Sequence record: MT446416.1
Strand: one strand, 5' to 3'
Length of the DNA stretch: 64,000 nucleotides
From: Escherichia virus TH47
This document shows positions 1,925-63,743 of this stretch, piece after piece; the first letter of the stretch is position 1, and each line of letters opens with the position of its first letter. The position numbers were made by a program, and so were the translations under genes. A model generated the notes under the pieces. It ran no database searches and had not been told where the DNA came from. It saw only the letters and a program-made list of their open reading frames with translations.

Positions 1925-2249
1925 GTAAGGTTTTAATTCGATTATACAATTTCACTGAAACATTACCAAATATACCATATCCAAGTACTAAAATGTATGC
2001 AATAAGCATAGTAATAATTACTATAGTGCCAAAACTATAATGTACACTACTGATACCCAATGTAGTTTCAACGATTATTTGGGAAAGAGAAAGAATCAAA
2101 AGTACAACTACAATAGGATGATTTGGATACATCCTATTAAATAGTGTTTTGTACTTGAAGAAGCAAAGCACTCCACCAAATAAGAAGTAAACAATGTAAA
2201 TGCAAGCAACAGCATAGGCAAACACGTTAGTGTAATAAATCATTATCAA
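1902..2249 (-). CDS. small multi-pass membrane protein, tandem paralog 2 of 3
   Basis: Same size and topology as neighbours; C-terminus ...KTLRDNLPER. Confidence 0.5.
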   Translation of the reverse strand: MIMIYYTNVFAYAVACIYIVYFLFGGVLCFFKYKTLFNRMYPNHPIVVVLLILSLSQIIVETTLGISSVHYSFGTIVIITMLIAYILVLGYGIFGNVSVKLYNRIKTLRDNLPER

Positions 2250-2252
2250 TCC

Positions 2253-2591
2253 TTATTTTTCAGGGATATTAGAACGCCATACATCAAGGCGATGGATCAG
2301 CTCAAAAAACAACCATACTGGAAAGAAAGATATCATAACACCAAGTGATAACCCGGTCAATACCGATACCAGATTTAATTCATCAGTACTATATCCACAT
2401 ATCAGTACTTCTAATATTCCCCACGTACACGCACAGAATACCAAGAATGAAATCGGTGCATCATAATAGATACGTTCATATAAAGTAGTGTATCGGAAGA
2501 ATGCAATAATGTAGCAAAACATGAAATATACCCACATCAATGACACTACATAGAATGACACTTTATTAATTAATTCAAAATTTTGTTCCAT
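2253..2591 (-). CDS. small multi-pass membrane protein, tandem paralog 3 of 3
   Basis: Same size and topology; C-terminus ...DVWRSNIPEK. Confidence 0.5.
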   Translation of the reverse strand: MEQNFELINKVSFYVVSLMWVYFMFCYIIAFFRYTTLYERIYYDAPISFLVFCACTWGILEVLICGYSTDELNLVSVLTGLSLGVMISFFPVWLFFELIHRLDVWRSNIPEK

Positions 2592-2592
2592 T

Positions 2593-2901
2593 TTATACCT
2601 TCAAATATTCAGAAAATAATGCATGAGCTTCTTCTATATTCTTGAGATAATACATATGATATAGATTTGGTTGACCATTTTTATAACTTAAATCGAAGTA
2701 CTTTAAACTATGCACCTTCATGACAAAAACAAATAATGACTTAAAACCAATCTCACCGTACTTAATAAACAGTTCATCTAAATGAATGTAACTCTTAGTT
2801 TCAGATAATTCCTTCACATCAGCTTCAATTTCTTGTAAGCGAAGTTTACCGATTAAGTTTTCAAATGAACGCATGATGTTGTTCCTTATGCTGGTACACA
2901 A
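2593..2901 (-). CDS. hypothetical protein (102 aa)
   Basis: ORF in minus-strand gene series. Confidence 0.45.
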   Translation of the reverse strand: MCTSIRNNIMRSFENLIGKLRLQEIEADVKELSETKSYIHLDELFIKYGEIGFKSLFVFVMKVHSLKYFDLSYKNGQPNLYHMYYLKNIEEAHALFSEYLKV

Positions 2902-3299
2902 TTTTTTATAATGAATACACGTTTCATGAATGAACTTTCATATACGTACTTCAGTTTACCATTTTCACGCATACGATGAAACACATCTTTACCACTAGTA
3001 CTCCAGGTTGAACCAGTCTCTGTATCAACATTGTTCATAACACCAGATGTTACGTTCACCCCGTACTTGAAGCTAAAGGTACTACCTTCTTCTACCAGAG
3101 GGATTGGTGTACTACGTTCATGTTCCAGTACAAGTTTACTGCCGATGATGTTGTACGAAGTTAGATTGCATTTTAAAACACCCATCTCTTGTGCAGTTGG
3201 GTAATTCTTCTCAAACAAATCAGATACTTCATTTGCATAACAAACTGAACTAATCATCAGAAGTAATGAACTGATAGAACGGAAAATAACTTTTAACAT
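2886..3299 (-). CDS. secreted protein with N-terminal signal peptide (137 aa)
   Basis: N-terminus MLKVIFRSISSLLLMISSVCYANE is signal-peptide-like. Confidence 0.5.
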   Translation of the reverse strand: MLKVIFRSISSLLLMISSVCYANEVSDLFEKNYPTAQEMGVLKCNLTSYNIIGSKLVLEHERSTPIPLVEEGSTFSFKYGVNVTSGVMNNVDTETGSTWSTSGKDVFHRMRENGKLKYVYESSFMKRVFIIKNCVPA

Positions 3300-3333
3300 G
3301 TTTGCCTCCAGTAGTTGATGAAATGATTATAGC

Positions 3334-3366
3334 AAAAAGGGCCGACCGAAGTCAACCCTTTTTTTA
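3334..3366 (-). terminator. rho-independent terminator, conserved GGGUUGAC-UUCG-GUCGGCCC hairpin plus U-run
   Basis: Plus strand aaaaagggccgaccgaagtcaacccttttttt; on the minus transcript a stem with UUCG tetraloop followed by a U tract; lies just past the stop of 3364..3747. Confidence 0.55.
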
Positions 3367-3747
3367 TATTTTACATATTATGTCTGGTTTTGGCTTTTCA
3401 TTCTTTGGCTTTTCAAATGGATTTGGCTTAGGGGACTTTTTATCTTTGTCATCTTTAGCTTTCTTTTTGTTTTCTTTTTTATCCGATTTGTCAGCTTTGT
3501 CTTTCTTATCCTTGGAATCTTTGTCAGCTTTAGATTGTGGTTCCTCACATACAGCAGCTTTTGGCTCCGGCATATCACATGAGTTATCCACAGGTTTAAT
3601 GAACTCTTTACAGTTGTAGAAGTATAAACTTTCATTGGTAGTAAGATTGTGGAATCTAAAGGTATTTTCACCATTAGTATATACTTTCTTAGTACTCTCA
3701 ATATCATTACACATTGCAACCGTGTCACCGGAATTCATGCTCGACAC
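3364..3747 (-). CDS. hypothetical protein with Lys/Asp-rich C-terminal tail (127 aa)
   Basis: ORF; preferred over the overlapping 3378..3728 frame which is poly-Lys junk. Confidence 0.4.
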   Translation of the reverse strand: MSSMNSGDTVAMCNDIESTKKVYTNGENTFRFHNLTTNESLYFYNCKEFIKPVDNSCDMPEPKAAVCEEPQSKADKDSKDKKDKADKSDKKENKKKAKDDKDKKSPKPNPFEKPKNEKPKPDIICKI

Positions 3748-3976
3748 CTAGTACATCAGATTTACGTTCAGATAGTATTCCAGACGTATATCGATCTTTG
3801 TTATCAAATGCATTGAACCCTATAGTTTTATTATTGTCATGTACTAATCCTCTAGTGTAAGACTTAGTATAGAACTCACCGTTTCTAAACTCCTGTCTAG
3901 CAATGGAGCACTGGTATTCAGTACTATAAGCTATATCAGTAAACAATACAAGTGAAAATAAAACATATTTAAACAT
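3725..3976 (-). CDS. small secreted protein (83 aa)
   Basis: Hydrophobic N-terminus MFKYVLFSLVLFTDIAYS. Confidence 0.45.
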   Translation of the reverse strand: MFKYVLFSLVLFTDIAYSTEYQCSIARQEFRNGEFYTKSYTRGLVHDNNKTIGFNAFDNKDRYTSGILSERKSDVLGVEHEFR

Positions 3977-4013
3977 TGCATTACCTCTTATAAAAACCCT
4001 CTACAATATTTAC

Positions 4014-4046
4014 AAAAAAAAAGGTTGACCGAAGTCAACCTTTTAA
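4014..4046. terminator. rho-independent terminator, conserved GGUUGAC-UUCG-GUCAACC hairpin (A/T runs on both sides)
   Basis: aaaaaaaaggttgaccgaagtcaacctttt immediately past the stop of 4051..5580. Confidence 0.6.
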
Positions 4047-4050
4047 ATGT

Positions 4051-5580
4051 TTATTTTTGATACTTGCTCATGATATCTTTTTCCCAAGAAGTTACGTTAC
4101 CATTGTCGTAATCCTTGAATGAGTTATCAAGTGTAGTTAGTGCATACTCATATGCTTCTGGTGATTCGATGTCAACATCATCTGCACCATTGACTAAATC
4201 AGACCAAGCCTTTTGAAGTTTACGAGCATTATTACCAACATTATTTTTAATCCAACTAATGTTTCTGTTGATACTTTTACTATCAGCCCCGGCTTTTTTA
4301 CCAATCTCTGATATCCACATCATTAGCTTTTGAAGTTCATGAATTGAGTTATCGTTCATTTCACGATCTTTAGAAAGTTCTGCTTCCATACCATCGGAAC
4401 CAGTACTGTCAGATGAACCAACGTCAATTCCATTTTTAGCTAATAGTTTACCAAGTTCAAAGAATGCAGCTTCAGCAGGGAAGTCATAACCTTTCTCTTT
4501 GTAGTTATTCCATGCACTATCAAACTCGTCAACAAAACGGTTAGCATAATCTGGATTTTTAACTAATGCTTTATATACTGCCATTGCATGTTCAAAACCT
4601 TCTTTATCTGACCCAAACTCTTCCATCTCAGGACGATGAATGTATCCATCCATATCAACGGTATCAGGTAGTTCTTCTTGCTCAGGCTCAACATCTTTCT
4701 GTTCAACTGCACCTTCTTCATCTTTACGTAGTAGATATCCATCAGGTGTCACTTTCTCACCATGTTCTGCTTCATACTTTTTCATGGTATTGAATGCAGC
4801 ATCCATAGCTGTTACGAAGCGACTTTTCTCACCTTGTACATAAGATTTAAGTGCACTATTAACAGCGTCAGATACGAGCTTAACCTTATCGTCTTTACCT
4901 TCTAAACGGTTTTCAAGTTTAGCCAGTACATTCTTGACTTGCTGGGCATTAGCACGGTCTGCTTTACCAATACTATCAAAAGTTTTAAGAATACCATCAA
5001 GACTTGCTTCACCCTGTTCAGGTTCTTTGGAATCTTCTTTGTGTGTACCTTCAAGTGCACGCATGATAGTACTGAATACTTCAGTAGGTTCAGTGCTCTT
5101 ATTACCTTTCATTGCATCAAGTACAGCTTGTGCTTTACCTTTGAGTTCTTCTTTAGGAACTGCCTGTAGTGCTTTGACAATACCCTGAATCAACTGTGGT
5201 TTGTTAGCAAATATCTTACCTAAGTTATCAGAAAGTTCTTTGACAGGGTTAGATGCTTTTGATTGTGCAGGTGCTTCTGGTTCTACTTCTGGACGTTCTT
5301 GTGCATTATCCATTGCAGCTAGTTGTTCTTTTTGATGAGCATTAAGTAATCCCAAAGCATTCATGTATTTTAATTTTTCATGTGGATTCATTTTGGAAGT
5401 ATCTGTTACTTCACCTGGCTTTGCATTTTCTACACCTTGTGCACCAGTGCTTTGGTTACGACTCATTTTTCTACCACTATGATAGTTTCCAGCAGGGCGG
5501 TACTCCGACTTGCGTTTTGAATGTTGAACAATTGCACCATTTCTGTGCTTCATATCACCATTATTATAATCACTAGGCAT
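4051..5580 (-). CDS. hypothetical protein (509 aa), largely hydrophilic and helical-looking
   Basis: Long ORF; strong SD aaggaggg about 6 nt upstream of ATG at 5580. Confidence 0.65.
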   Translation of the reverse strand: MPSDYNNGDMKHRNGAIVQHSKRKSEYRPAGNYHSGRKMSRNQSTGAQGVENAKPGEVTDTSKMNPHEKLKYMNALGLLNAHQKEQLAAMDNAQERPEVEPEAPAQSKASNPVKELSDNLGKIFANKPQLIQGIVKALQAVPKEELKGKAQAVLDAMKGNKSTEPTEVFSTIMRALEGTHKEDSKEPEQGEASLDGILKTFDSIGKADRANAQQVKNVLAKLENRLEGKDDKVKLVSDAVNSALKSYVQGEKSRFVTAMDAAFNTMKKYEAEHGEKVTPDGYLLRKDEEGAVEQKDVEPEQEELPDTVDMDGYIHRPEMEEFGSDKEGFEHAMAVYKALVKNPDYANRFVDEFDSAWNNYKEKGYDFPAEAAFFELGKLLAKNGIDVGSSDSTGSDGMEAELSKDREMNDNSIHELQKLMMWISEIGKKAGADSKSINRNISWIKNNVGNNARKLQKAWSDLVNGADDVDIESPEAYEYALTTLDNSFKDYDNGNVTSWEKDIMSKYQK

Positions 5581-5623: not shown

Positions 5624-6808
5624 CTACTTAATACTGTTCACATCAAGTTCTTGTACATTATATGATTCAATTATTTTTATTAATTTTTCATATTCCGATT
5701 CATTGATTGTTTCAGTATACCCGTCCAAATAATTTATTTTATCAATAACTTTTCTTTTTATGCCACTCATATGTTTAATAAAATATTCAAGTTCTTTGAT
5801 TAAAATACCATCAGCACTGTAATATGTTTTATATTTTTCAGTTCTAAATAAGTTTTTATTATATTGTTCAAATCTGTATATATAGTTGTTTGTTATACCA
5901 AATTTATAATATAACCTACCATTACCTAGTACTCGATGTATATAAAAATACCCAGGTTTACTTGGGTCATATCCACCTCGACTACAACTTGGACAACCTC
6001 TTTTCTTTTGAACAATATTTTGATATCGAGTTGTCCATTCAGGATGTTCACATTCTGAACATTTTAATGTAATTAATGTATGTACATTTTTATATATAAA
6101 TGGTTTATAAGTATATCCGTTAGATGTGCAAATTTCATTAAGTCTTTTAATTGATTCATCTTGTGAAAGACAAAGTTTTCTAGCTGTGGATTGATTTCCA
6201 CATTTTGCACATCCATTACCTTGATATACAAATTTATCATAACTTAAACTAAATTCATCATGGTCGGGATTGCAACATTTTAATGTAATTTTAGTTCTAT
6301 TATTTTTATATTCAAAAGGTTTATAAGTATATCCAGTAGTATTACATATGTTATTTACATTTAATTCTGCTTGTTGTTGGGTTAATTTTAACTTTCCACC
6401 ACATTCAATACATCCATTTTTCTTATTAACTAAAGAATTATAATTAGTTTCATGTGGTTTATGGGAGGCAACTCCACAATGAATTATTATTTTTGTTCCT
6501 ATAGCACCTTTAAAATCAAAGGGTTCATAAGTATATCCTTTTAATTCACATATTTCATGAACTTTAGTTCTTGCTGTTTTTTCTTTTAAAGAATTTCTTC
6601 CTTTACATTCTGGACACCCAGTTCTTTTATAAATGAATTTACTAAATTTACATTTCCATTCTTCATGTTTAAAGTTATCACATTTAAGTTCTAATATTGT
6701 TTTAGTGTTAATATAAGTGAAAGGTTTATATGTATAATTTTGTTCTAAACATCTGTTCGCTACTATTTTTTCAGCTTCTTCTTGTGTTAATCGTATCCCA
6801 CTAGCCAT
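5624..6808 (-). CDS. repeat-containing protein with putative C-terminal GIY-YIG nuclease domain (394 aa)
   Basis: Four tandem modules of about 65 aa each with GYTY[KE]PF...LKC...GC.[EK]C; C-terminal GYFYIHRVLGNGRLYYKFGIT resembles the GIY-x10-YIG motif. Confidence 0.45.
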   Translation of the reverse strand: MASGIRLTQEEAEKIVANRCLEQNYTYKPFTYINTKTILELKCDNFKHEEWKCKFSKFIYKRTGCPECKGRNSLKEKTARTKVHEICELKGYTYEPFDFKGAIGTKIIIHCGVASHKPHETNYNSLVNKKNGCIECGGKLKLTQQQAELNVNNICNTTGYTYKPFEYKNNRTKITLKCCNPDHDEFSLSYDKFVYQGNGCAKCGNQSTARKLCLSQDESIKRLNEICTSNGYTYKPFIYKNVHTLITLKCSECEHPEWTTRYQNIVQKKRGCPSCSRGGYDPSKPGYFYIHRVLGNGRLYYKFGITNNYIYRFEQYNKNLFRTEKYKTYYSADGILIKELEYFIKHMSGIKRKVIDKINYLDGYTETINESEYEKLIKIIESYNVQELDVNSIK

Positions 6809-6853
6809 GAAATATAATCCTTGAATCTTTGTTATTTCATATATTTACTATAT

Positions 6854-6886
6854 AAAAAAAAGGCTGACCGAAGTCAACCCCTTTTA
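6854..6886 (-). terminator. rho-independent terminator, conserved hairpin
   Basis: aaaaaaaaggctgaccgaagtcaacccctttt past the stop of 6888..7094. Confidence 0.55.
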
Positions 6887-6887
6887 A

Positions 6888-7094
6888 TTATTTTTTAAAC
6901 TTATGTTTTTCGCCGTCAATAGAGTTCACGATGACATCATGAATCTTGCGAAGGTTATGAGTTTTCTTTAGTGCTTCATGTAGTGCACGGAATGCTGCGT
7001 GTACTGTTGCCTTGAAGTGCTCTTTAGGAGTCACTTTAAGTTTCTCAATGATATCACGTACATAAATTGGATGATCTTCAAATACACGATTCAA
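6888..7094 (-). CDS. hypothetical protein (68 aa)
   Basis: Small ORF in gene series. Confidence 0.4.
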   Translation of the reverse strand: MNRVFEDHPIYVRDIIEKLKVTPKEHFKATVHAAFRALHEALKKTHNLRKIHDVIVNSIDGEKHKFKK

Positions 7095-7109
7095 TTCATG
7101 GCCTAGTGA

Positions 7110-7271
7110 TTATAAACTGAAAGCTTTTTCGCGTGAAGGACGATCATGTGCAAGACTTTGGTCAGGCTTTAGTAGACCTAGTGAATCAAGATACTTATGC
7201 TTATGTGCATTATCAATTCCAGAAATATCCACATCATGCGATGGATCTTTCTTATTCCATTTATCAACCAT
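7110..7271 (-). CDS. small hypothetical protein (53 aa), not in the supplied track
   Basis: Hand translation MVDKWNKKDPSHDVDISGIDNAHKHKYLDSLGLLKPDQSLAHDRPSRRKSFSL; aaggag SD 6 nt upstream; fills an otherwise empty gap. Confidence 0.4.
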   Translation of the reverse strand: MVDKWNKKDPSHDVDISGIDNAHKHKYLDSLGLLKPDQSLAHDRPSREKAFSL

Positions 7272-7382
7272 TTCACACTCCTTAAAGAGATAAATTACTT
7301 TAATATTTATACTTCATGTGCTGTTTATTTCCACAGACACTTAAGATTATATCACATATGAAATGGTTGTTCCAAAGTCAAA

Positions 7383-7859
7383 TCAGTACTGTTTAAGTTC
7401 TGAACTGAAGATAAAGGAATCCATATCTTCTAGTGTTAACTTCAAGTCCGGTGTGTACTTTAATATCACACATTCAGGTTTCTTAATGGCAGCTTGATAG
7501 GCAGCAATTGCCAACTGTTGAAGCTGCTCTGGTGTGTAGTTCATGCGTTCTGCATTGAATACGATGTTGTTAATATCACCACCTGGCAGCTTCTCAAACT
7601 CACGCATAACAGCAGCCATCACATCATCAGATGTATTCTTATAAGCCCAATGAGGTAGTTGCATAACATCATAAATCTCGCCATTGTCGTTCATAAGAGA
7701 GATCCATTTTTTACCGTCCGATGAACTAAACAGACGACCTTTAATAGCAATGTTCTCTACCAAATTAACAAAGGCAAATATGTCTTGCTCATTTAGTTCA
7801 ATGCTATTAACGTTAATCCAACCCATACTACATCTCCAGTTATAAATCACGAACGACAT
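7383..7859 (-). CDS. hypothetical protein (158 aa)
   Basis: ORF in gene series. Confidence 0.5.
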   Translation of the reverse strand: MSFVIYNWRCSMGWINVNSIELNEQDIFAFVNLVENIAIKGRLFSSSDGKKWISLMNDNGEIYDVMQLPHWAYKNTSDDVMAAVMREFEKLPGGDINNIVFNAERMNYTPEQLQQLAIAAYQAAIKKPECVILKYTPDLKLTLEDMDSFIFSSELKQY

Positions 7860-55071: not shown

Positions 55072-55330
55072 ACAATCTCCTAGTGAAAAAAGCCAGATTC
55101 TTTCTTATATACTCGGCGACACAATCAGTAGTCTGTGTATTTGTGAATGCAACAACTTCATTCGATACACCATTCCCATTACACAATGGACAAATCCCCA
55201 TATACTTAGGTGTTGGAACTGTATCTAGTTTATATTTCCCTGAAGATATCATGTATTGTTGTGGTAATACATCCAAAGAAATAATATAATCATCATCGAA
55301 TTGCTTACAACATACCCAACATTTACTCAT
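55052..55330 (-). CDS. zinc-ribbon protein (92 aa)
   Basis: CWVCC...CPLC cysteine pairs. Confidence 0.45.
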   Translation of the reverse strand: MSKCWVCCKQFDDDYIISLDVLPQQYMISSGKYKLDTVPTPKYMGICPLCNGNGVSNEVVAFTNTQTTDCVAEYIRKNLAFFTRRLYERENL

Positions 55331-55814
55331 TGTGGTTCTCCTTCAAAACAATTCTTATATCTTCGAATGTTTGAACAAACCAGTCATGCTCATCAGATAC
55401 ATCAACCACCTTCCCACCATAAACATAGTAATGATAGAAGGGTAACTTACTTTTCCTCAATCGTTCAGCAAGTTCTGGGTTTTGAAATATCTTAGCACAT
55501 ATTGCATCCTGGATACAAGAAATGCATTCGGGTGTCATTTCAATACGGTCGTGCATATACTTGTTCGCCGCTGCTTTTGCAGCAGCACCCGACACTTTTC
55601 TAAGATCATCATGTTTCTGGCCTGTTAAAAACCAAAAATAAAAAGTTTCTACCGATGGGAACCAACCGTATGGTTCTAAGGTAAAACTATGTGACGAAAA
55701 GTTAGATAGATCCCTACCTAACTTAGTTTTAGCTTTACTATAGATATTAATGTGTCTGTATCCGTCATCAGTAGGGTCAATATAGTTAAATGACTCTTCA
55801 GGAAATTCAAACAT
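55323..55814 (-). CDS. NADAR (YbiA/DUF1768)-like protein, tentative (163 aa)
   Basis: LSNFSSHSFTLEPYGWFPSVETFYFWFLTGQK and AKIFQNPELAERLRKS resemble the NADAR core as recalled from memory; no alignment run. Confidence 0.35.
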   Translation of the reverse strand: MFEFPEESFNYIDPTDDGYRHINIYSKAKTKLGRDLSNFSSHSFTLEPYGWFPSVETFYFWFLTGQKHDDLRKVSGAAAKAAANKYMHDRIEMTPECISCIQDAICAKIFQNPELAERLRKSKLPFYHYYVYGGKVVDVSDEHDWFVQTFEDIRIVLKENHNE

Positions 55815-57328: not shown

Positions 57329-57375
57329 AATAAATCCTATAGAAAATGAGAGTACAATGTACTCCCAGATTTAGA

Positions 57376-57930
57376 TTATAGTTTAATTACTTCTTGGATA
57401 CCAGTATCCATTGCTTTCTTAGTGCGTGTATCAGAAACTACTGTACATAAATGTTCAATATTTTCACTTGGGAATGTGTTAGTATCAAGAATTTTGGAGT
57501 TCCAGAAACCTTTACGGAACTTAGCATAATCAGTACACTGGTCAATTTTCATTTTCTGAAGATTGTTGAACTGTGTACGTCCTGACTCGATAGTTACCAT
57601 AAGTTCTTGATAAATCTTAGGATCGAGATTAGGAACCTGTTGTTGAATCTGTGACATCACAAACTTCTGGTCAACACCTTCACGACCTTTAAAGTATGTT
57701 TCGATGGTTTCTTTCAATGCATCCTTATACTTATCAGAAACTTGTACTTTTTCTTGAATGACAAGAGTGTATTTACTTAGTTGGCTTTCTGATGCATCAT
57801 AGTACTTTTTAATATTACCTTCAAATTCAACAGCACGGTCATGTGCATCTACATACATACTAACTGAACCAATTGCCATAAGACCGAATACAACAACAAC
57901 ACCAATCAATGCAATAATTTTACCATTCAT
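57376..57930 (-). CDS. LemA-family-like membrane-anchored protein, tentative (184 aa)
   Basis: N-terminal TM helix; C-terminal QELMVTIESGRTQFNNLQKMKIDQCTDYAKFRKGFWN resembles the LemA C-terminal consensus as recalled. Confidence 0.4.
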   Translation of the reverse strand: MNGKIIALIGVVVVFGLMAIGSVSMYVDAHDRAVEFEGNIKKYYDASESQLSKYTLVIQEKVQVSDKYKDALKETIETYFKGREGVDQKFVMSQIQQQVPNLDPKIYQELMVTIESGRTQFNNLQKMKIDQCTDYAKFRKGFWNSKILDTNTFPSENIEHLCTVVSDTRTKKAMDTGIQEVIKL

Positions 57931-59021
57931 AACTTGTTATCCCTCATATAAAGGCCAATGAAAATAGATACAATCAGTAACAAAATAGAAGCACCGATGA
58001 GAACATCTTTACGTGGTTCCATTTTTACAGACAAGTACTCGAACTCTTTGTTAGAGAGTCTTTCAAACTTTGTGTCAATATTATGCACTTCTTTGGTCAG
58101 TAAGTCAAGAGTTAATTTTTCATTTAATGCATCCATTCGCATCTTAGCATGTAGTTCTTCATTCTTCATACCTTGTGCAAATGATGTGCTATCAAATTTA
58201 ACGATCTTCCCATCAGCATCAATACCAAAGAACATGATAACATCATTCTTCTTACCACCACGCCACGATGCGAGTGTTGCTTCCACAAAATCTACGTTTT
58301 TATAATCATAAACCAAAACTTGGATGTTTACTTGTTTACGTGCACCCATAGTTTTTAGTTCTTCACGCAGATACTCATCATAACCATCTACATTATAATT
58401 AGTAGTGTTGATTACATGGTGTGTTTTATAATAGTCTACCACACTTGGGTATTCTGGTAAAGTACTAAGATATTTCTCATCATACATTTCATGTAATTCA
58501 CCAGGACTAAACAATGAGTTTTTATCAGCGAACAGATAGTTAATATAAGAACTTTCTGCGGCGGCATAATCCCCAATGTTAACCTGTTGCCAGCGGGGAG
58601 GGGTCATTGTACCCTGGCGGTTTACTCGCTCAATCTCAAACTTCCCTACAGTACTTTTTACATACCAGTCAACTTCGTATGAATAATCAAATACCTTATA
58701 GGACTCACATTCACGATGGGATTTCCCCTTACTATCATAACGAGTTCTGCATTTCTCGTGCCACGTGTAATGCTTACATGAGCTTGATTGTGTACAAAAC
58801 TCCTTGTGATTATATTTGGATGTTACCTGCCCATTTAGAATCTCTACATCGTACAATTGGCTGTAGTTGATTGCATATGAGATACCAAGCACAAGAGCAG
58901 CACCAACTATACAACAACCAATATGAATCAACAGTTCTTTAGTACTGATATGCTTATCATACATGTATTTCATAACAAATACAACGATAAGTGAAGGAAT
59001 CAACAGAATAATAAAATTCAT
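57927..59021 (-). CDS. membrane protein with N- and C-terminal TM helices (364 aa)
   Basis: Hydrophobic termini with a Cys-rich segment; 4-nt overlap with the LemA-like gene. Confidence 0.55.
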   Translation of the reverse strand: MNFIILLIPSLIVVFVMKYMYDKHISTKELLIHIGCCIVGAALVLGISYAINYSQLYDVEILNGQVTSKYNHKEFCTQSSSCKHYTWHEKCRTRYDSKGKSHRECESYKVFDYSYEVDWYVKSTVGKFEIERVNRQGTMTPPRWQQVNIGDYAAAESSYINYLFADKNSLFSPGELHEMYDEKYLSTLPEYPSVVDYYKTHHVINTTNYNVDGYDEYLREELKTMGARKQVNIQVLVYDYKNVDFVEATLASWRGGKKNDVIMFFGIDADGKIVKFDSTSFAQGMKNEELHAKMRMDALNEKLTLDLLTKEVHNIDTKFERLSNKEFEYLSVKMEPRKDVLIGASILLLIVSIFIGLYMRDNKL

Positions 59022-59024
59022 GTA

Positions 59025-59714
59025 TTAGTCCAGTTTAAGTTTATTGAGACAATAGGAGATTTGGATAGCTTCACGTGCTGCATCATACAGAGGGTGATGT
59101 AATTCCAAACCATTAATACCACATTTTTCTACATACTTCACGAATTTAGCTAACTGCACTGACACAATCTCATCCATTTCGGTGCGAGCTTCTTCATTCA
59201 ATAAACGCTTCAGGGTTCGTGCGTTTTCAGGAGCATCATATTTCCACAAATCACCAACATTCAATAGTTTTAAGTGATTAGCTTGTAAAATACTACAGTC
59301 GAAGTTGCAGCCATTTCCCCAAATTGAATGTTCAACCTCTTTACCATAACAATCAAAACGGATATCTTTCCAGAAATCGACAATAGCATTAGAAGTAAAG
59401 ATTTGTTTGGATTTACCATTAGGACCGTACAATTCTGGTGCAACAAGTGCCATAGTACTGGCAACTTCAGCATATGCATTAGGATATTCCTTCTGACATG
59501 TATTCATCCAGAAATCCATTGCACCTGCATCTGATTTCAGCCCAGCGTTGACTTGTGCTTGGTATGGTAACTTAACATATACAAATTGTCTGATATCATG
59601 TTCAGGTTTACTTGGAACAACTACTGCTGCATAATTTGGAATAATAATATCATAACCAGAGTTTTCAGGAGTACCGAGAGCTTCGATATCAACACTAACA
59701 TGACGGCGTTTCAT
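59025..59714 (-). CDS. DEDDh-type (DnaQ-like) 3'-5' exonuclease (229 aa)
   Basis: Exo I VSVDIEALGT, Exo II GNGCNFDCSIL, Exo III HHPLYDAAREA. Confidence 0.6.
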   Translation of the reverse strand: MKRRHVSVDIEALGTPENSGYDIIIPNYAAVVVPSKPEHDIRQFVYVKLPYQAQVNAGLKSDAGAMDFWMNTCQKEYPNAYAEVASTMALVAPELYGPNGKSKQIFTSNAIVDFWKDIRFDCYGKEVEHSIWGNGCNFDCSILQANHLKLLNVGDLWKYDAPENARTLKRLLNEEARTEMDEIVSVQLAKFVKYVEKCGINGLELHHPLYDAAREAIQISYCLNKLKLD

Positions 59715-59795
59715 ATTTCGTTCCTTATCTGTATATTAAAAAAGAGTGCGTTTCAATAAGAACATTATATTGAAAACGCACTCTTGTGTCAACTA

Positions 59796-61013
59796 TTACT
59801 TGTTAGCTTTTTCAGCAATTTCACGAAGAGTATCTTCGAGTTCATGAGAGAGTTTTGCGATTTCAATCTTAGCACGCTCACGCTCTTCTTTACCTTTCTT
59901 CTCTTCAATCAGTACTGCTTCGATACTATCGATCATTGTTTTATGTACATTACGCAATGTTTTAATATCCACGATACCACGATTATTTGCTTTAGCAGCA
60001 TCCAACATGTTAGTTGCTACCATTTTAGAGTTTACTTCGAGTAAACGGTTAGTTTCATTGTCAATCAGATTACCCAACTCATTGTCTTTACGTTGACGTT
60101 CGGAAATCAACTGTTCAGCCAATTGTGATTTCCATGCTGGAATAACAACTGATTTCAAATCCTCAAACTTAGAAACAGTGTTGAGGTTTACTTTCTTCAT
60201 ACTCATCAGGCGAGGACCACTCAGTTCACACATCATGATAAGACGACGAATCTTATCTTCCTGCTTAGAAAGAGCTTCACAAATCATCTTTTGCTCCTGG
60301 ATTGCAAAAGAATCAACGTCAGGGTTCGCTTGCATTGCTACCAATTCAGCATCTTGTGCTTTGGTAACTTCTTCCAACTCAACTAACGTATCACGCAGTT
60401 CAAAGAGATAGTTTTTGTTTTCGTTGTAAGCAGTGTCTAGCCATGCACATTCCCCATGCTGGCGGTTAATACCAACCTGAAGAGTGTTCATGATTTCATC
60501 AATTTGTTCTTTACTGTTTTTGTACTGATCGCCAACTTTCTGTTTAGCATTAACAAAGAGTTTTTTGACCCAGCCTACGATTGATTTATCATCCTGTAGA
60601 CTATCAATATCAACTGCACGTGTCAATGTCAAGATAGTAGTAATAGACTTACCGAATTCGGTATTATCATCAGTGACGTTAACTTTTGACATGATTTCAT
60701 CAGCCAAACGTCCTACACCTGCCCCAGCAGTGGTTCCGATGGTATTAATATTCTGCACAGTTAAAGCCATACTGTTACCTTTGGTATCTTTCAGTACTGG
60801 AAGTGACTTGGACTGTTGTTCGAAGATATCAGTTGCGTCAATTGTGTGTGCTGCTGTTTTGGTAGTACGTTTGGCAGTTTTGGTTGCTTTGGCTTGTTTA
60901 ACTGTTGCTTTTTTCGGATTGATTTCTTTCTCGGACATTGTGTATTCCTCAGTTAATTTAAGATAGTGTTGCTCAGTGATAAACATTCTACAGGCAACAC
61001 TCAGTACTGTCAA
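59796..61013 (-). CDS. TelA-like (toxic anion resistance family) protein, tentative (405 aa; start may be MSEKEI at about 60938)
   Basis: About 380-aa helical protein with Lys-rich N-terminus; family assignment from overall resemblance only. Confidence 0.35.
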   Translation of the reverse strand: MTVLSVACRMFITEQHYLKLTEEYTMSEKEINPKKATVKQAKATKTAKRTTKTAAHTIDATDIFEQQSKSLPVLKDTKGNSMALTVQNINTIGTTAGAGVGRLADEIMSKVNVTDDNTEFGKSITTILTLTRAVDIDSLQDDKSIVGWVKKLFVNAKQKVGDQYKNSKEQIDEIMNTLQVGINRQHGECAWLDTAYNENKNYLFELRDTLVELEEVTKAQDAELVAMQANPDVDSFAIQEQKMICEALSKQEDKIRRLIMMCELSGPRLMSMKKVNLNTVSKFEDLKSVVIPAWKSQLAEQLISERQRKDNELGNLIDNETNRLLEVNSKMVATNMLDAAKANNRGIVDIKTLRNVHKTMIDSIEAVLIEEKKGKEERERAKIEIAKLSHELEDTLREIAEKANK

Positions 61014-61020
61014 CTACTTT

Positions 61021-62148
61021 TTACTCTTTATTTCCATACGCCAGGTTACGAATGATATTGGCAGTATCTTCATCAACTGCTTTACCAGTTTGAGCTTGCA
61101 AACGGCCTATGATCAATGGGATAGTGATAGTTTGAATATCAATCATTCGGCTCATATCAATCTGATACTGCTTACTAACACCAACAATACTAGTTTCAGT
61201 CATTGCTGTTGAAATCCCCATTTTCATAATACGTTCAAGCGTCAGTTCATATTCAAATGGATCTTCCAAACGACGAATTGCATATTCACACCCAATCTTA
61301 CCATACTCAAGTTCATTTTTGATTTCACGAACTTCATCACGAATTTCAGTGAATAAAGTCGTAATACCACTAAACTTATTCGTATCGTACTTCACTGCTT
61401 CATTCAATGCTTTCATTACTTTTGGTAAATCAGTTGGCTGTACTTTGATATCAGCTTTCCCAAACAACTTCTGTGTAAATGTAGGCTTCAAAGGGAATAA
61501 CTTTTCCAGTGCTGTTGTAAGGTTACCCATTAATAAACGGATATAATCACTATGCTGCTGTAATGCTGCGTTTAAATCCAACTGACGCTCGGAGATCTTC
61601 TGAATCTTCACACCAACTTCTTGTGCACATACTGGTAGGTTTACATACCAATCCAGAACCTTCACCGGATCTTTTTTAATTGTATCTGGAAAATCCATCC
61701 AACGTTCAATGTCAGCAACCATATCACATTCAGGGTCGATAGGTTTCTTCTTAAGAACAATCGGAGCCGGAACTTCTGGTGAAGTAGCTACTGCTGCCAT
61801 GTTTGGACGAAGTTTACCTTCCTTCCAGTCTCGGTACTCCTTCTCTAACGGAGGAATTGGGAGATCTGGAACGATTCTCACATTTGAGAAATGAATTTTA
61901 TCTTTCATTAAATCCATTACCTTCAAACGGCGATTATCAAAATAGATCTCGTCAAGTGAAAGTGAACGTGTGTCGAAATGTGGATTTCCCAGTGAATCGT
62001 ATGTTCTGTCCACAACAATGGTATACATATATTTTCGATTCGATGAACGGTCATACTGTTTTAACAGTGAGTTAAGAACGTAGTTGAAGTTAAATTCTTT
62101 GATTTCGACTTCTTTACCGTTGTCAATGAAAAAATATTTTCCTTTCAT
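61021..62148 (-). CDS. hypothetical protein (375 aa)
   Basis: Long ORF adjacent to the TelA-like gene. Confidence 0.55.
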   Translation of the reverse strand: MKGKYFFIDNGKEVEIKEFNFNYVLNSLLKQYDRSSNRKYMYTIVVDRTYDSLGNPHFDTRSLSLDEIYFDNRRLKVMDLMKDKIHFSNVRIVPDLPIPPLEKEYRDWKEGKLRPNMAAVATSPEVPAPIVLKKKPIDPECDMVADIERWMDFPDTIKKDPVKVLDWYVNLPVCAQEVGVKIQKISERQLDLNAALQQHSDYIRLLMGNLTTALEKLFPLKPTFTQKLFGKADIKVQPTDLPKVMKALNEAVKYDTNKFSGITTLFTEIRDEVREIKNELEYGKIGCEYAIRRLEDPFEYELTLERIMKMGISTAMTETSIVGVSKQYQIDMSRMIDIQTITIPLIIGRLQAQTGKAVDEDTANIIRNLAYGNKE

Positions 62149-62231
62149 TACTGACCTCTTAATTAATTAAAATTGATACGATACGTACATTCTACATACA
62201 CACGATGTATTTGTCAAACCATTTTTTAAAA

Positions 62232-62264
62232 GAAAAAAGGACGCACCTTAGTGCATCCTTTTGT
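62232..62264. terminator. rho-independent terminator
   Basis: aaaaaaggacgcaccttagtgcatccttttg hairpin between 62248..63066 and 61021..62148. Confidence 0.45.
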
Positions 62265-63066
62265 TACTCTTGTCCTTGTACCACACAAATGTTTTTACTG
62301 GTGGGTACTTTTCATTCTTCGGTGGCTCCGGCATATCATACACAGTTGCATTTCTGAATTTCAAAATGTATGAATCCATTAAACGAATTATACAATAGTT
62401 CATGCACTTTTGTGCACGTTCTTTCCAAAAATGTTTATATGGTTCTGGACACCCAAGATAATCCAATTTGTACATACCCATAGCAGCTTGCATAAAGCGT
62501 TGGGCAGAGAACTTACGCTTGTCTACCTTACTAGCTCGATGCTGGTCACATGTCCAACTAGAGATACCAGGGAGATGACAGAATAAATCAAAACTCACCA
62601 TACTATCAAAGTACTTGTTATGACCGTTCAACTCTCCATAAAATACCGCTTCGGAAACAGTTTCATATAGTGAGTAATTTGTATGTATATGTTCATTGTC
62701 AAATATAGCTTTTAGATCTTTGTAAGTTTCTGGTACTGGTGGCTCTGGTAAAACTTCACCGAACGTCTCTAAGCACCAAATCTTCCACAAGCCTTTCGTA
62801 AATTTTACTTCAAGTTCTTTATCGCTGTCAATATAAAAAGTTTTCTCATTGATAAAAACTTTTCGTGCCATGTATGCTTTGAATACCGCATCAGGGTCGA
62901 TATCTTCACGTTTGATATCGTCCCATCCTTTACCGATTCGAGAAATTTCGAATCGTCTCATATACATCCTACATGCCAAATCTTTAGTTGTACTACGATG
63001 ATACTTGTCGTCTTGATGAAGTTTGGTAGTCTCATGGAGAGATTTAAGCATGTTTAAAATTCTCAT
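62248..63066 (-). CDS. hypothetical protein (272 aa)
   Basis: Long ORF. Confidence 0.55.
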   Translation of the reverse strand: MRILNMLKSLHETTKLHQDDKYHRSTTKDLACRMYMRRFEISRIGKGWDDIKREDIDPDAVFKAYMARKVFINEKTFYIDSDKELEVKFTKGLWKIWCLETFGEVLPEPPVPETYKDLKAIFDNEHIHTNYSLYETVSEAVFYGELNGHNKYFDSMVSFDLFCHLPGISSWTCDQHRASKVDKRKFSAQRFMQAAMGMYKLDYLGCPEPYKHFWKERAQKCMNYCIIRLMDSYILKFRNATVYDMPEPPKNEKYPPVKTFVWYKDKSNKRMH

Positions 63067-63743
63067 CGTAACACCAAATACTTCCCATCTTTACCTACTA
63101 CATACTGATTACCGCTACGTAGGACGCTATAACTTTCACCTAGTACCGAACTTAAGCGAGATGTATCTACCTGCGTATCGTTCGATAGAAGCTGTTTTAC
63201 GTATGCTTCTGACACAAATCCACTACCAGTACTGTAATGTAGTTTACCATATGCAGTGTTTAGTGCAAGCATGTGACCTTCTTTAACAACAGATACACCA
63301 GCAAAGTCTAAAAATTCACTGATGGATTTAGGAATACCCAAATCGATACGTTGTTGAATTTCATCAAAATCAACATCAATCGGATCATTCACACCATAAA
63401 GCTGAATCTTCCAGCCAGGATTTGGGCAAATGTTTTCAATAGTTTTGATAAGACGAAGTAGGTTTTCTGGAAATTCCGCATCACGTTCCATTTCAACGAA
63501 TACCTGATAACGACCATCCAGGTTAGGTGTTTCAGCAGCTTCAGTATCAACTGCATCAATTGGAGACTTCTCAATAAAAGATGACAGGTCATATGCAGCA
63601 TCAAAGTTGTTTAGTACTTGAAACATAACAACGATATTACTATCTTCAATCTTAGGAGTATATTCATCTACACTAATAATAGGATGAATCAAATCCTTTA
63701 GTACTTGTGGACGTAAACCTTGTTCATTTAGTTTCTTTTTCAT
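63063..63743 (-). CDS. hypothetical protein (226 aa)
   Basis: Long ORF; 4-nt overlap with the downstream gene. Confidence 0.55.
   Translation of the reverse strand: MKKKLNEQGLRPQVLKDLIHPIISVDEYTPKIEDSNIVVMFQVLNNFDAAYDLSSFIEKSPIDAVDTEAAETPNLDGRYQVFVEMERDAEFPENLLRLIKTIENICPNPGWKIQLYGVNDPIDVDFDEIQQRIDLGIPKSISEFLDFAGVSVVKEGHMLALNTAYGKLHYSTGSGFVSEAYVKQLLSNDTQVDTSRLSSVLGESYSVLRSGNQYVVGKDGKYLVLR

Follow-up and report, generated by a model that had tools for sequence, protein, structure and literature searches.

A diverged LemA-like and TPM-like gene pair and a TelA gene with a conserved partner in a putative early-gene block of Escherichia virus TH47

In a 64,000-nucleotide stretch of the genome of Escherichia virus TH47 (MT446416.1; this whole stretch is the window referred to below), we analyzed five consecutive genes that an initial annotation had described as a single cluster of LemA-like, large membrane protein, exonuclease and TelA-like genes. 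The last two genes in the direction of transcription are a very diverged phage counterpart of the bacterial lemA-TPM/ygcG pair. With moderate confidence, we read the region as three early units that have been inherited together in RaK2-like jumbo phages and not as one system, both modules, the membrane protein pair and TelA with its partner, conditioning the host inner membrane. All five open reading frames (ORFs) exist where they had been placed. They lie on the minus strand, which had been left unstated, and are given here in their order of transcription, in which a 375-amino acid (aa) gene is followed by TelA, the exonuclease, a 364-aa TPM-like gene and a 184-aa LemA-like gene.

61021..62148, minus strand: 375-aa soluble protein, conserved upstream partner of TelA (homology and adjacency)
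59796..60938, minus strand: TelA-family protein (toxic anion resistance, PF05816), 380 aa (Pfam, PHROG and annotation)
59025..59714, minus strand: DEDDh 3'-5' exonuclease, Rv2179c-like (Pfam and catalytic residues)
57927..59021, minus strand: 364-aa inner-membrane protein with a predicted TPM-fold domain (transmembrane prediction and AlphaFold2 model)
57376..57930, minus strand: 184-aa putative remote LemA homolog (family profile and architecture)

The LemA assignment of the 184-aa protein failed at the level of a direct Pfam scan and held at the level of the family profile. The scan gave no PF04011 match at E ≤ 1 (gathering score 26.2 bits), the closest relatives tested reached 24.6 and 17.3 bits, below that score, and close relatives carried no Pfam domain. 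Single-sequence and narrow-profile searches of PDB sequences found no LemA, and Pfam, NCBIfam and PADLOC scans of the 184-, 364- and 375-aa proteins returned nothing significant. An exhaustive profile search gathered a family of 730 representatives (50% clustering), nearly all of 180 to 200 aa. A profile built from 117 diverse members had one significant match in the PDB, the 'lemA protein' of Thermotoga maritima (2etd; E = 1.1e-7; query 29-159 against chain 9-156), and 21 of these 117 members individually matched PF04011, the best at E = 2.9e-6. In the other direction, the phage profile scored bacterial proteins named LemA by PGAP at 12.7 to 47 bits, mostly over their full length. The architecture comprises an N-terminal transmembrane (TM) helix at residues 5-23 and long helices at 3-62, 66-81, 88-98 and 104-139, and Foldseek matched the fold weakly to 2etd (probability 0.75, E~1). 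Taken together, the profile evidence indicates that the 184-aa protein is a remote, single-pass LemA homolog.

The 364-aa protein had been noted for its terminal TM helices, and these were confirmed as two N-terminal and one C-terminal hydrophobic helix. Its layout consists of TM 3-21, TM 30-48, a Cys-containing beta domain (57-160), an alpha/beta domain at approximately 203-318 and TM 340-358. A confident AlphaFold2 (AF2) model built from 54 sequences (pLDDT 91.5, pTM 0.81) placed helices at 2-20 and 27-54, a beta-rich domain with four cysteines at 57-160 and a C-terminal helix at 338-361; the family comprised 93 matches, down to 25% identity. According to this model the alpha/beta domain has the TPM fold (PF04536, TLP18.3/Psb32/MOLO-1). 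At the sequence level, Pfam gave no TPM match, the family profile found no TPM sequence in the PDB, and the phage TPM-like hidden Markov model (HMM) scored bacterial TPM proteins at 3 bits or less. The fold could indicate a periplasmic enzyme, a phosphatase or nucleotidase, that supplies the phage with scavenged phosphate or nucleotides, with the LemA-like protein as its anchor or cofactor. We consider this quite improbable, given that the protein shares 9-13% identity with TPM structures and that no catalytic residues could be mapped; moreover, Psb32 and a mycobacterial supercomplex subunit, both TPM proteins, serve in assembly or in accessory roles and not as enzymes.

The genes for these two proteins form a tight pair. 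The 4-nt ATGA overlap reported between them is real (57927-57930), the LemA-like start lying over the TPM-like stop, and the TPM-like gene was directly followed by the LemA-like gene in every phage locus examined, among them 15 loci of the RaK2 group, contigs of 339 kb and 500 kb, CBA120 (Ackermannviridae), ICP1 and the T4-like Aeromonas phage Aeh1. Searches with tblastn returned 485 phage records for the TPM-like gene and 482 for the LemA-like gene, with closely matching counts per genus (TPM-like/LemA-like: Salmonella 166/166, Escherichia 62/62, Klebsiella 55/54, Erwinia 29/29, among others). The pair occurs in Ackermannviridae, ICP1, T4-like Aeromonas phages, many jumbo phages and Lak megaphages, and, judged by these homology searches, it is an autonomous module in about 480 sequenced phages.

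A similar arrangement exists in bacteria. Among ten LemA loci taken from annotated replicons, a TPM or YgcG gene adjoined LemA in six (Bacteroides, Ralstonia, Leptospira, Halomonas, Polaromonas and Enterococcus), while the others had DUF2207, M48 peptidase or unknown-protein neighbours. Both the bacterial lemA-TPM pair (ygcG; PF04011 and PF04536) and the phage pair consist of two adjacent, co-oriented genes, one for a helical bundle of approximately 185 aa with a single TM pass and one for a membrane protein whose TPM-fold domain is extracytoplasmic and precedes a TM helix. They differ in that both phage proteins fall below Pfam thresholds, in that the TPM fold of the phage protein is preceded by two N-terminal TM helices and by an additional Cys-containing beta domain of approximately 100 aa, and in that the phage genes stand behind phage early-type promoters. 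Gene order also differs, since in bacteria LemA usually comes first and TPM follows, frequently along with another TPM gene, and the phages have the reverse; the Bacteroides locus has the phage-like order.

Charge distribution provides a further link between the phage and bacterial pairs. In the TPM-like family, the mean number of Lys and Arg residues was 2.29 in the loop between TM1 and TM2, 2.94 in the C-terminal tail and 0.08 at the N-terminus. This pattern predicts that residues 49-339, with the beta and TPM domains, are periplasmic, which fits their cysteines. The flanks of the LemA-like helix carried 1.36 Lys and Arg and 0.11 Asp and Glu on the N-terminal side, and 0.77 and 1.24, respectively, on the C-terminal side, so that a basic N-flank and an acidic C-flank predict a cytoplasmic N-terminus with the domain in the periplasm. 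The same N-in/C-out bias was found in all six bacterial LemAs paired with TPM or YgcG, and the opposite bias in all five paired with DUF2207, M48, OmpA or unknown proteins. In this small sample, the dependence of the charge bias on the partner lends independent support to the pairing and suggests two topological classes of LemA, split by partner. A different LemA arrangement was seen on plasmid 2 of Providencia alcalifaciens, where the locus at 2126-4684 encodes two LemAs in tandem, the first followed by a 347-aa multi-TM hypothetical protein and the second by a 130-aa hypothetical protein; scoring with the phage HMM ruled out the 347-aa protein as a homolog of the phage TPM-like protein.

To place the five genes in context, we compared the region with related phages. 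It is 98-99% identical to the Asteriusvirus jumbo phages Turkey3, Ecwhy_1, fEgEco12 and CMSTMSU and approximately 81% identical to PBECO4. The labels 'LEMA protein', 'TelA-like/tellurite resistance' and 'exonuclease' already appear in public records, where they are inconsistently applied. The order of partner, TelA, exonuclease, TPM-like and LemA-like genes was kept in 15/15 RaK2-group loci, down to approximately 40-50% protein identity. The initial annotation had staked its reading on profile matches and synteny; profile matches were found for parts of it, and the five-gene synteny was found only within RaK2-like phages. Its family guesses proved largely right, clearly for TelA and the DEDDh exonuclease and remotely for LemA, while the TPM fold of the 364-aa protein, the TelA partnership of the 375-aa protein and the true TelA start had been overlooked.

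The regulatory signals around the genes were next mapped along the minus strand.

62235-62262, minus strand: terminator hairpin after the upstream 272-aa gene (hairpin scan)
62189..62217, minus strand: sigma70-type promoter TTGACA-17-TAGAAT, 11/12, upstream of the 375-aa gene (motif)
60985..61013, minus strand: sigma70-type promoter TTGACA-17-TAGAAT, 11/12, upstream of TelA (motif)
59735..59792, minus strand: sigma70-type promoter TTGACA-17-TATAAT, 12/12, before the exonuclease (59792-59764), with an overlapping hairpin (motif and folding)
57347..57367, minus strand: intrinsic-terminator-like hairpin and T-run directly after the LemA-like stop, end of the unit (hairpin scan)

The hairpin at 59735-59792 (17 bp and a U-run, folding free energy -21.5 kcal/mol, z -5.4) likely terminates TelA transcripts. 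Such a combined terminator and promoter cassette is reminiscent of the promoter-early stem-loop elements of T4-type phages. From the separate promoters and hairpins we infer three early units, the partner gene, TelA, and the exonuclease with the TPM-like and LemA-like genes.

These observations bear on the proposal that the five genes are one envelope-stress or superinfection-exclusion cluster in which the LemA-like and TelA-like proteins act jointly. The order kept in the RaK2 group agrees with it, both the LemA and TelA families are tied to bacterial envelope stress, and expression of lemA and of a TPM gene rises in an sppA mutant. Nevertheless, conservation in a single lineage can be vertical inheritance, and outside the RaK2-like lineage the modules come apart. 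CBA120, ICP1, Aeh1 and the two megaphage contigs have the TPM-like/LemA-like pair with neither TelA nor the exonuclease nearby, and TelA occurs without the LemA pair nearby in Klebsiella phage FBKp34, phAPEC8 and plasmids. Record numbers (283 for TelA, 482 for the LemA-like gene) and genus make-up differ as well, and separate near-consensus promoters and a hairpin terminator stand between the units within the window. A single LemA and TelA envelope cluster is not supported, and we regard it as unlikely. The presence of these families together in a phage had also been called notable, which the same record numbers show to be overstated.

TelA itself was assigned with certainty to its family, matching PF05816 at E = 1.8e-37 (129.6 bits, profile positions 14-331 of 332; gathering score 30 bits), and no TM helix was predicted. 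The start previously given at 61013 (TTG, 405 aa) is wrong because these three bases open the -35 hexamer of the TTGACA-17-TAGAAT promoter. The start is instead the ATG at 60938, preceded by a GAGGAA ribosome-binding site, which yields 380 aa, the length annotated in phage Ecwhy_1; the PHROG alignment, beginning at residue 30, is consistent with this position. Iyer et al. 2021 (PMC7824862) had already treated the TelA of these jumbo phages, describing it as standalone and proposing a role against superinfecting phages; their paper mentions neither LemA nor TPM. Our data agree with a standalone TelA in that TerD was undetectable by tblastn in Escherichia RaK2-like phages (46 TerD-positive phage records, 0 from Escherichia). 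No Ter genes were found among the window neighbours of TelA, TerC having been looked for there and not genome-wide.

Elsewhere, TelA is shared with Ter clusters of the stress-response/anti-phage kind (TerC, TerD, TerF-vWA, TelA, PRTase and HAD; FBKp34, phAPEC8, phiPsa and Caulobacter jumbo phages), from which the window differs by the undetectable TerD. The Ter-type cluster around TelA in FBKp34 includes TerC, two TerD genes and a vWA protein, and a cell-wall hydrolase gene follows TelA; the gene upstream of TelA is the same as in the window. TelA also occurs with Ter genes in phAPEC8. A Ter-type cluster, which Escherichia RaK2-like phages lack, appears to be present in 'Xanthomonas phage XaC1' (OR258281.1, 349 kb; region 292985-295312), a genome that matches the window region in the 60-80% identity band of a DNA search. 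It carries two TerD genes, with 76% identity to their FBKp34 counterparts, and a TelA-partner gene with 55% identity to the FBKp34 copy.

The partner is the 375-aa protein, which had been listed as unknown and showed neither a Pfam match nor a TM helix. At 40% identity or more it is limited to RaK2-like phages, as was every match in a scan of viral contigs with the partner alignment, and it lies directly upstream of TelA in all RaK2-like genomes. Its N-terminal portion of approximately 140 aa is specific to these phages. The C-terminal 235 residues (140-375) share homology with the gene that immediately precedes TelA in FBKp34 (hhalign E = 1.3e-13; 74.7 bits by HMM; tblastn in both directions, E down to 4e-9). 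In phAPEC8, an SprT-like gene stands upstream of TelA; it was considered as the same partner and ruled out.

The succession of partner and TelA resembles that of KlaA and TelA on plasmids. Plasmid KlaA proteins from three loci (3624-4394, 3542-4351 and 3521-4294) themselves belong to the Pfam TelA family as short members (30-40 bits), and the operon runs from KlaA to TelA to a protein of approximately 300 aa; judged by these matches, the plasmid kilA-type operon is a TelA paralog pair followed by the 300-aa protein. In the IncP kilA/tellurite operon klaA-klaB(telA)-klaC(telB) and its IncHI2 and Pseudomonas relatives, a TelA of approximately 370 aa is directly preceded by a smaller soluble helical partner, as in the phage. 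The phage arrangement departs from it in that the partner has the additional 140-aa N-terminal domain, the gene downstream of TelA encodes an exonuclease and not a protein in the KlaC/TelB position, and the partner and TelA genes have separate promoters. The 375-aa protein gave no BLASTP match to TelA and an hhalign probability of 2% against phage TelA alone. Weak hhalign matches were obtained to KlaA (probability 28%, E = 6e-4) and to KlaA and TelA combined (41%, E = 2.8e-4), with the partner aligning co-linearly, including the KPxF..LxG and V/I-x-IP motifs. It is a possible candidate for a remote KlaA/TelA-like paralog. Calling TelA standalone overlooked this conserved partner, of which we found no earlier description in the records and literature searched.

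The exonuclease rests on clear motifs. Its Exo motifs, reported previously, are present as D9-x-E11, N137-F-D139 and H206-x4-D211, and it matches PF16473 (Rv2179c-like 3'-5' exoribonuclease) at E = 3.4e-9 (37.1 bits, cutoff 27). It thereby resembles the Rv2179c-like DEDDh exoribonucleases and T5 gene T5.087, all five DEDDh residues being found in the window protein. Outside RaK2-like phages, no link to the membrane genes was found. Public records mislabel it as 'metallopeptidase', 'peptidase' or 'DNA polymerase III epsilon'; the first two labels were seen in Ecwhy_1, RaK2, fEgEco12, BF17 and the GenBank PBECO4 entry, and the 'metallopeptidase' label appears to have spread through similarity to T5.087/T5p085. 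On contig IMGVR_UViG_2029527005_000005 (359,777 bp), the locus at 5726-7558 holds the exonuclease and the TPM-like protein in one stop-to-stop frame, for which a read-through fusion or an error in sequencing might account; at a near-identical locus, the exonuclease ORF ends normally.

In the mechanism we propose, the host RNA polymerase would transcribe these genes early. The TPM-like and LemA-like proteins would insert into the inner membrane, place their domains on the periplasmic side and probably act as a complex, as suggested by the start/stop overlap and the strict co-occurrence of their genes. The partner and TelA, two soluble helical proteins presumably expressed from one sigma70-type promoter each, would act at the cytoplasmic face; this pair recurs in the Ter-type cluster of FBKp34. 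The exonuclease would be a co-transcribed passenger. Most likely, the modules would condition the host inner membrane over a long infection, keeping its integrity or energisation, blocking the entry of competing phages, or both.

One finding weighs against this reading. The LemA-like ortholog of RaK2, gp175, was detected in virions by tandem mass spectrometry (two peptides, 11.4% coverage), likely the source of the label 'virion structural protein' that phrog_1383, RefSeq and several public records carry. Both the detection and the labels would fit a virion component, perhaps one inserted in the host membrane at DNA delivery. We hold this to be improbable, since two peptides are thin evidence and a membrane-anchored protein could co-purify with membrane debris, and most structural labels were probably propagated from the single PHROG name. 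Furthermore, the gene sits within blocks of small non-structural genes in CBA120, ICP1 and Aeh1, stands behind a sigma70-type promoter in the window, overlaps the gene of a polytopic membrane protein and is homologous to a bacterial membrane protein family.

Control of lysis or its timing, with the pair acting as holin, antiholin or spanin-like proteins, was also weighed. Both are small inner-membrane proteins with predicted periplasmic domains, a layout like that of lysis regulators such as T4 RI, and the cell-wall hydrolase gene of FBKp34 could be cited in its favour. No endolysin or holin gene adjoins the pair in the window, CBA120, ICP1 or Aeh1 loci, the predicted early promoters are ill-suited to late lysis genes, and the homology is to bacterial LemA and TPM and to no lysis protein family. 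A lysis role is therefore very unlikely.

Returning to the conditioning of the inner membrane, a more specific form of the proposal is that the pair is an unrecognised and widespread early phage accessory system on the periplasmic face of that membrane, which blocks the entry of competitors' DNA or keeps the membrane energised, and that TelA belongs to an obligate two-protein unit of a KlaA-like protein and TelA. This form we consider doubtful, though if it were true, tractable phages such as ICP1 or CBA120 would for the first time open the bacterial LemA-TPM module, long unexplained, to genetics. The function of the pair is proposed from sequence and a structural model, and its importance is moderate; public records had named TelA and LemA before, and there is nothing unusual about the exonuclease. 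Bacteria encode LemA, TPM-domain and TelA proteins in abundance, and what these do in the cell is only vaguely understood. The occurrence of the pair in about 480 phage genomes and about 730 metagenome protein clusters, together with the TPM fold of the LemA-like protein's neighbour, suggests an ancient LemA-TPM partnership, one so robust that virulent phages have retained it. ICP1, CBA120 and RaK2-like phages are simple genetic systems in which to study it, and the topology split, with TPM-paired LemAs facing outward and others inward, provides a testable rule for the bacterial LemA family. Our literature searches, which covered LemA, TPM, YgcG and TelA, returned no description of the phage TPM-LemA pair; likewise, records and literature yielded no earlier account of the TPM fold of the partner, of the module or of the breadth of its distribution. 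For annotation, the TelA start is corrected, 'metallopeptidase' becomes exonuclease, and the 'virion structural protein' label of the LemA-like protein is called into question.

Promoters were also counted over the entire window, a near-consensus promoter being defined by at least 11 of 12 matches to TTGACA/TATAAT. The coding strand held 37 and the opposite strand 0, with 3.3 ± 1.8 expected. A separate count at the loose threshold of the prediction tool gave 28 promoter-like sites against 28.9 by chance; only the near-consensus class was enriched. By its motif content, the 64-kb window as a whole resembles a block of early genes with densely spaced promoters that the host RNA polymerase reads. 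Further examples of near-consensus promoters (motif) are as follows.

44651-44623, minus strand: near-consensus promoter
37641-37614, minus strand: near-consensus promoter
37501-37473, minus strand: near-consensus promoter
25033-25006, minus strand: near-consensus promoter
16211-16184, minus strand: near-consensus promoter
12252-12225, minus strand: near-consensus promoter
907-880, minus strand: near-consensus promoter

Two nearby loci on the same strand deserve mention. A 163-aa protein at 55323-55814 had no Pfam match at the threshold used and matched phrog_652 at E = 8e-46; it is named 'NADAR domain-containing protein' in phage Turkey3. The gene at 63063-63743 and the next gene upstream are labelled virion structural (phrog_13138; RaK2 ORF168/169) despite their position in a block with early-type promoters.

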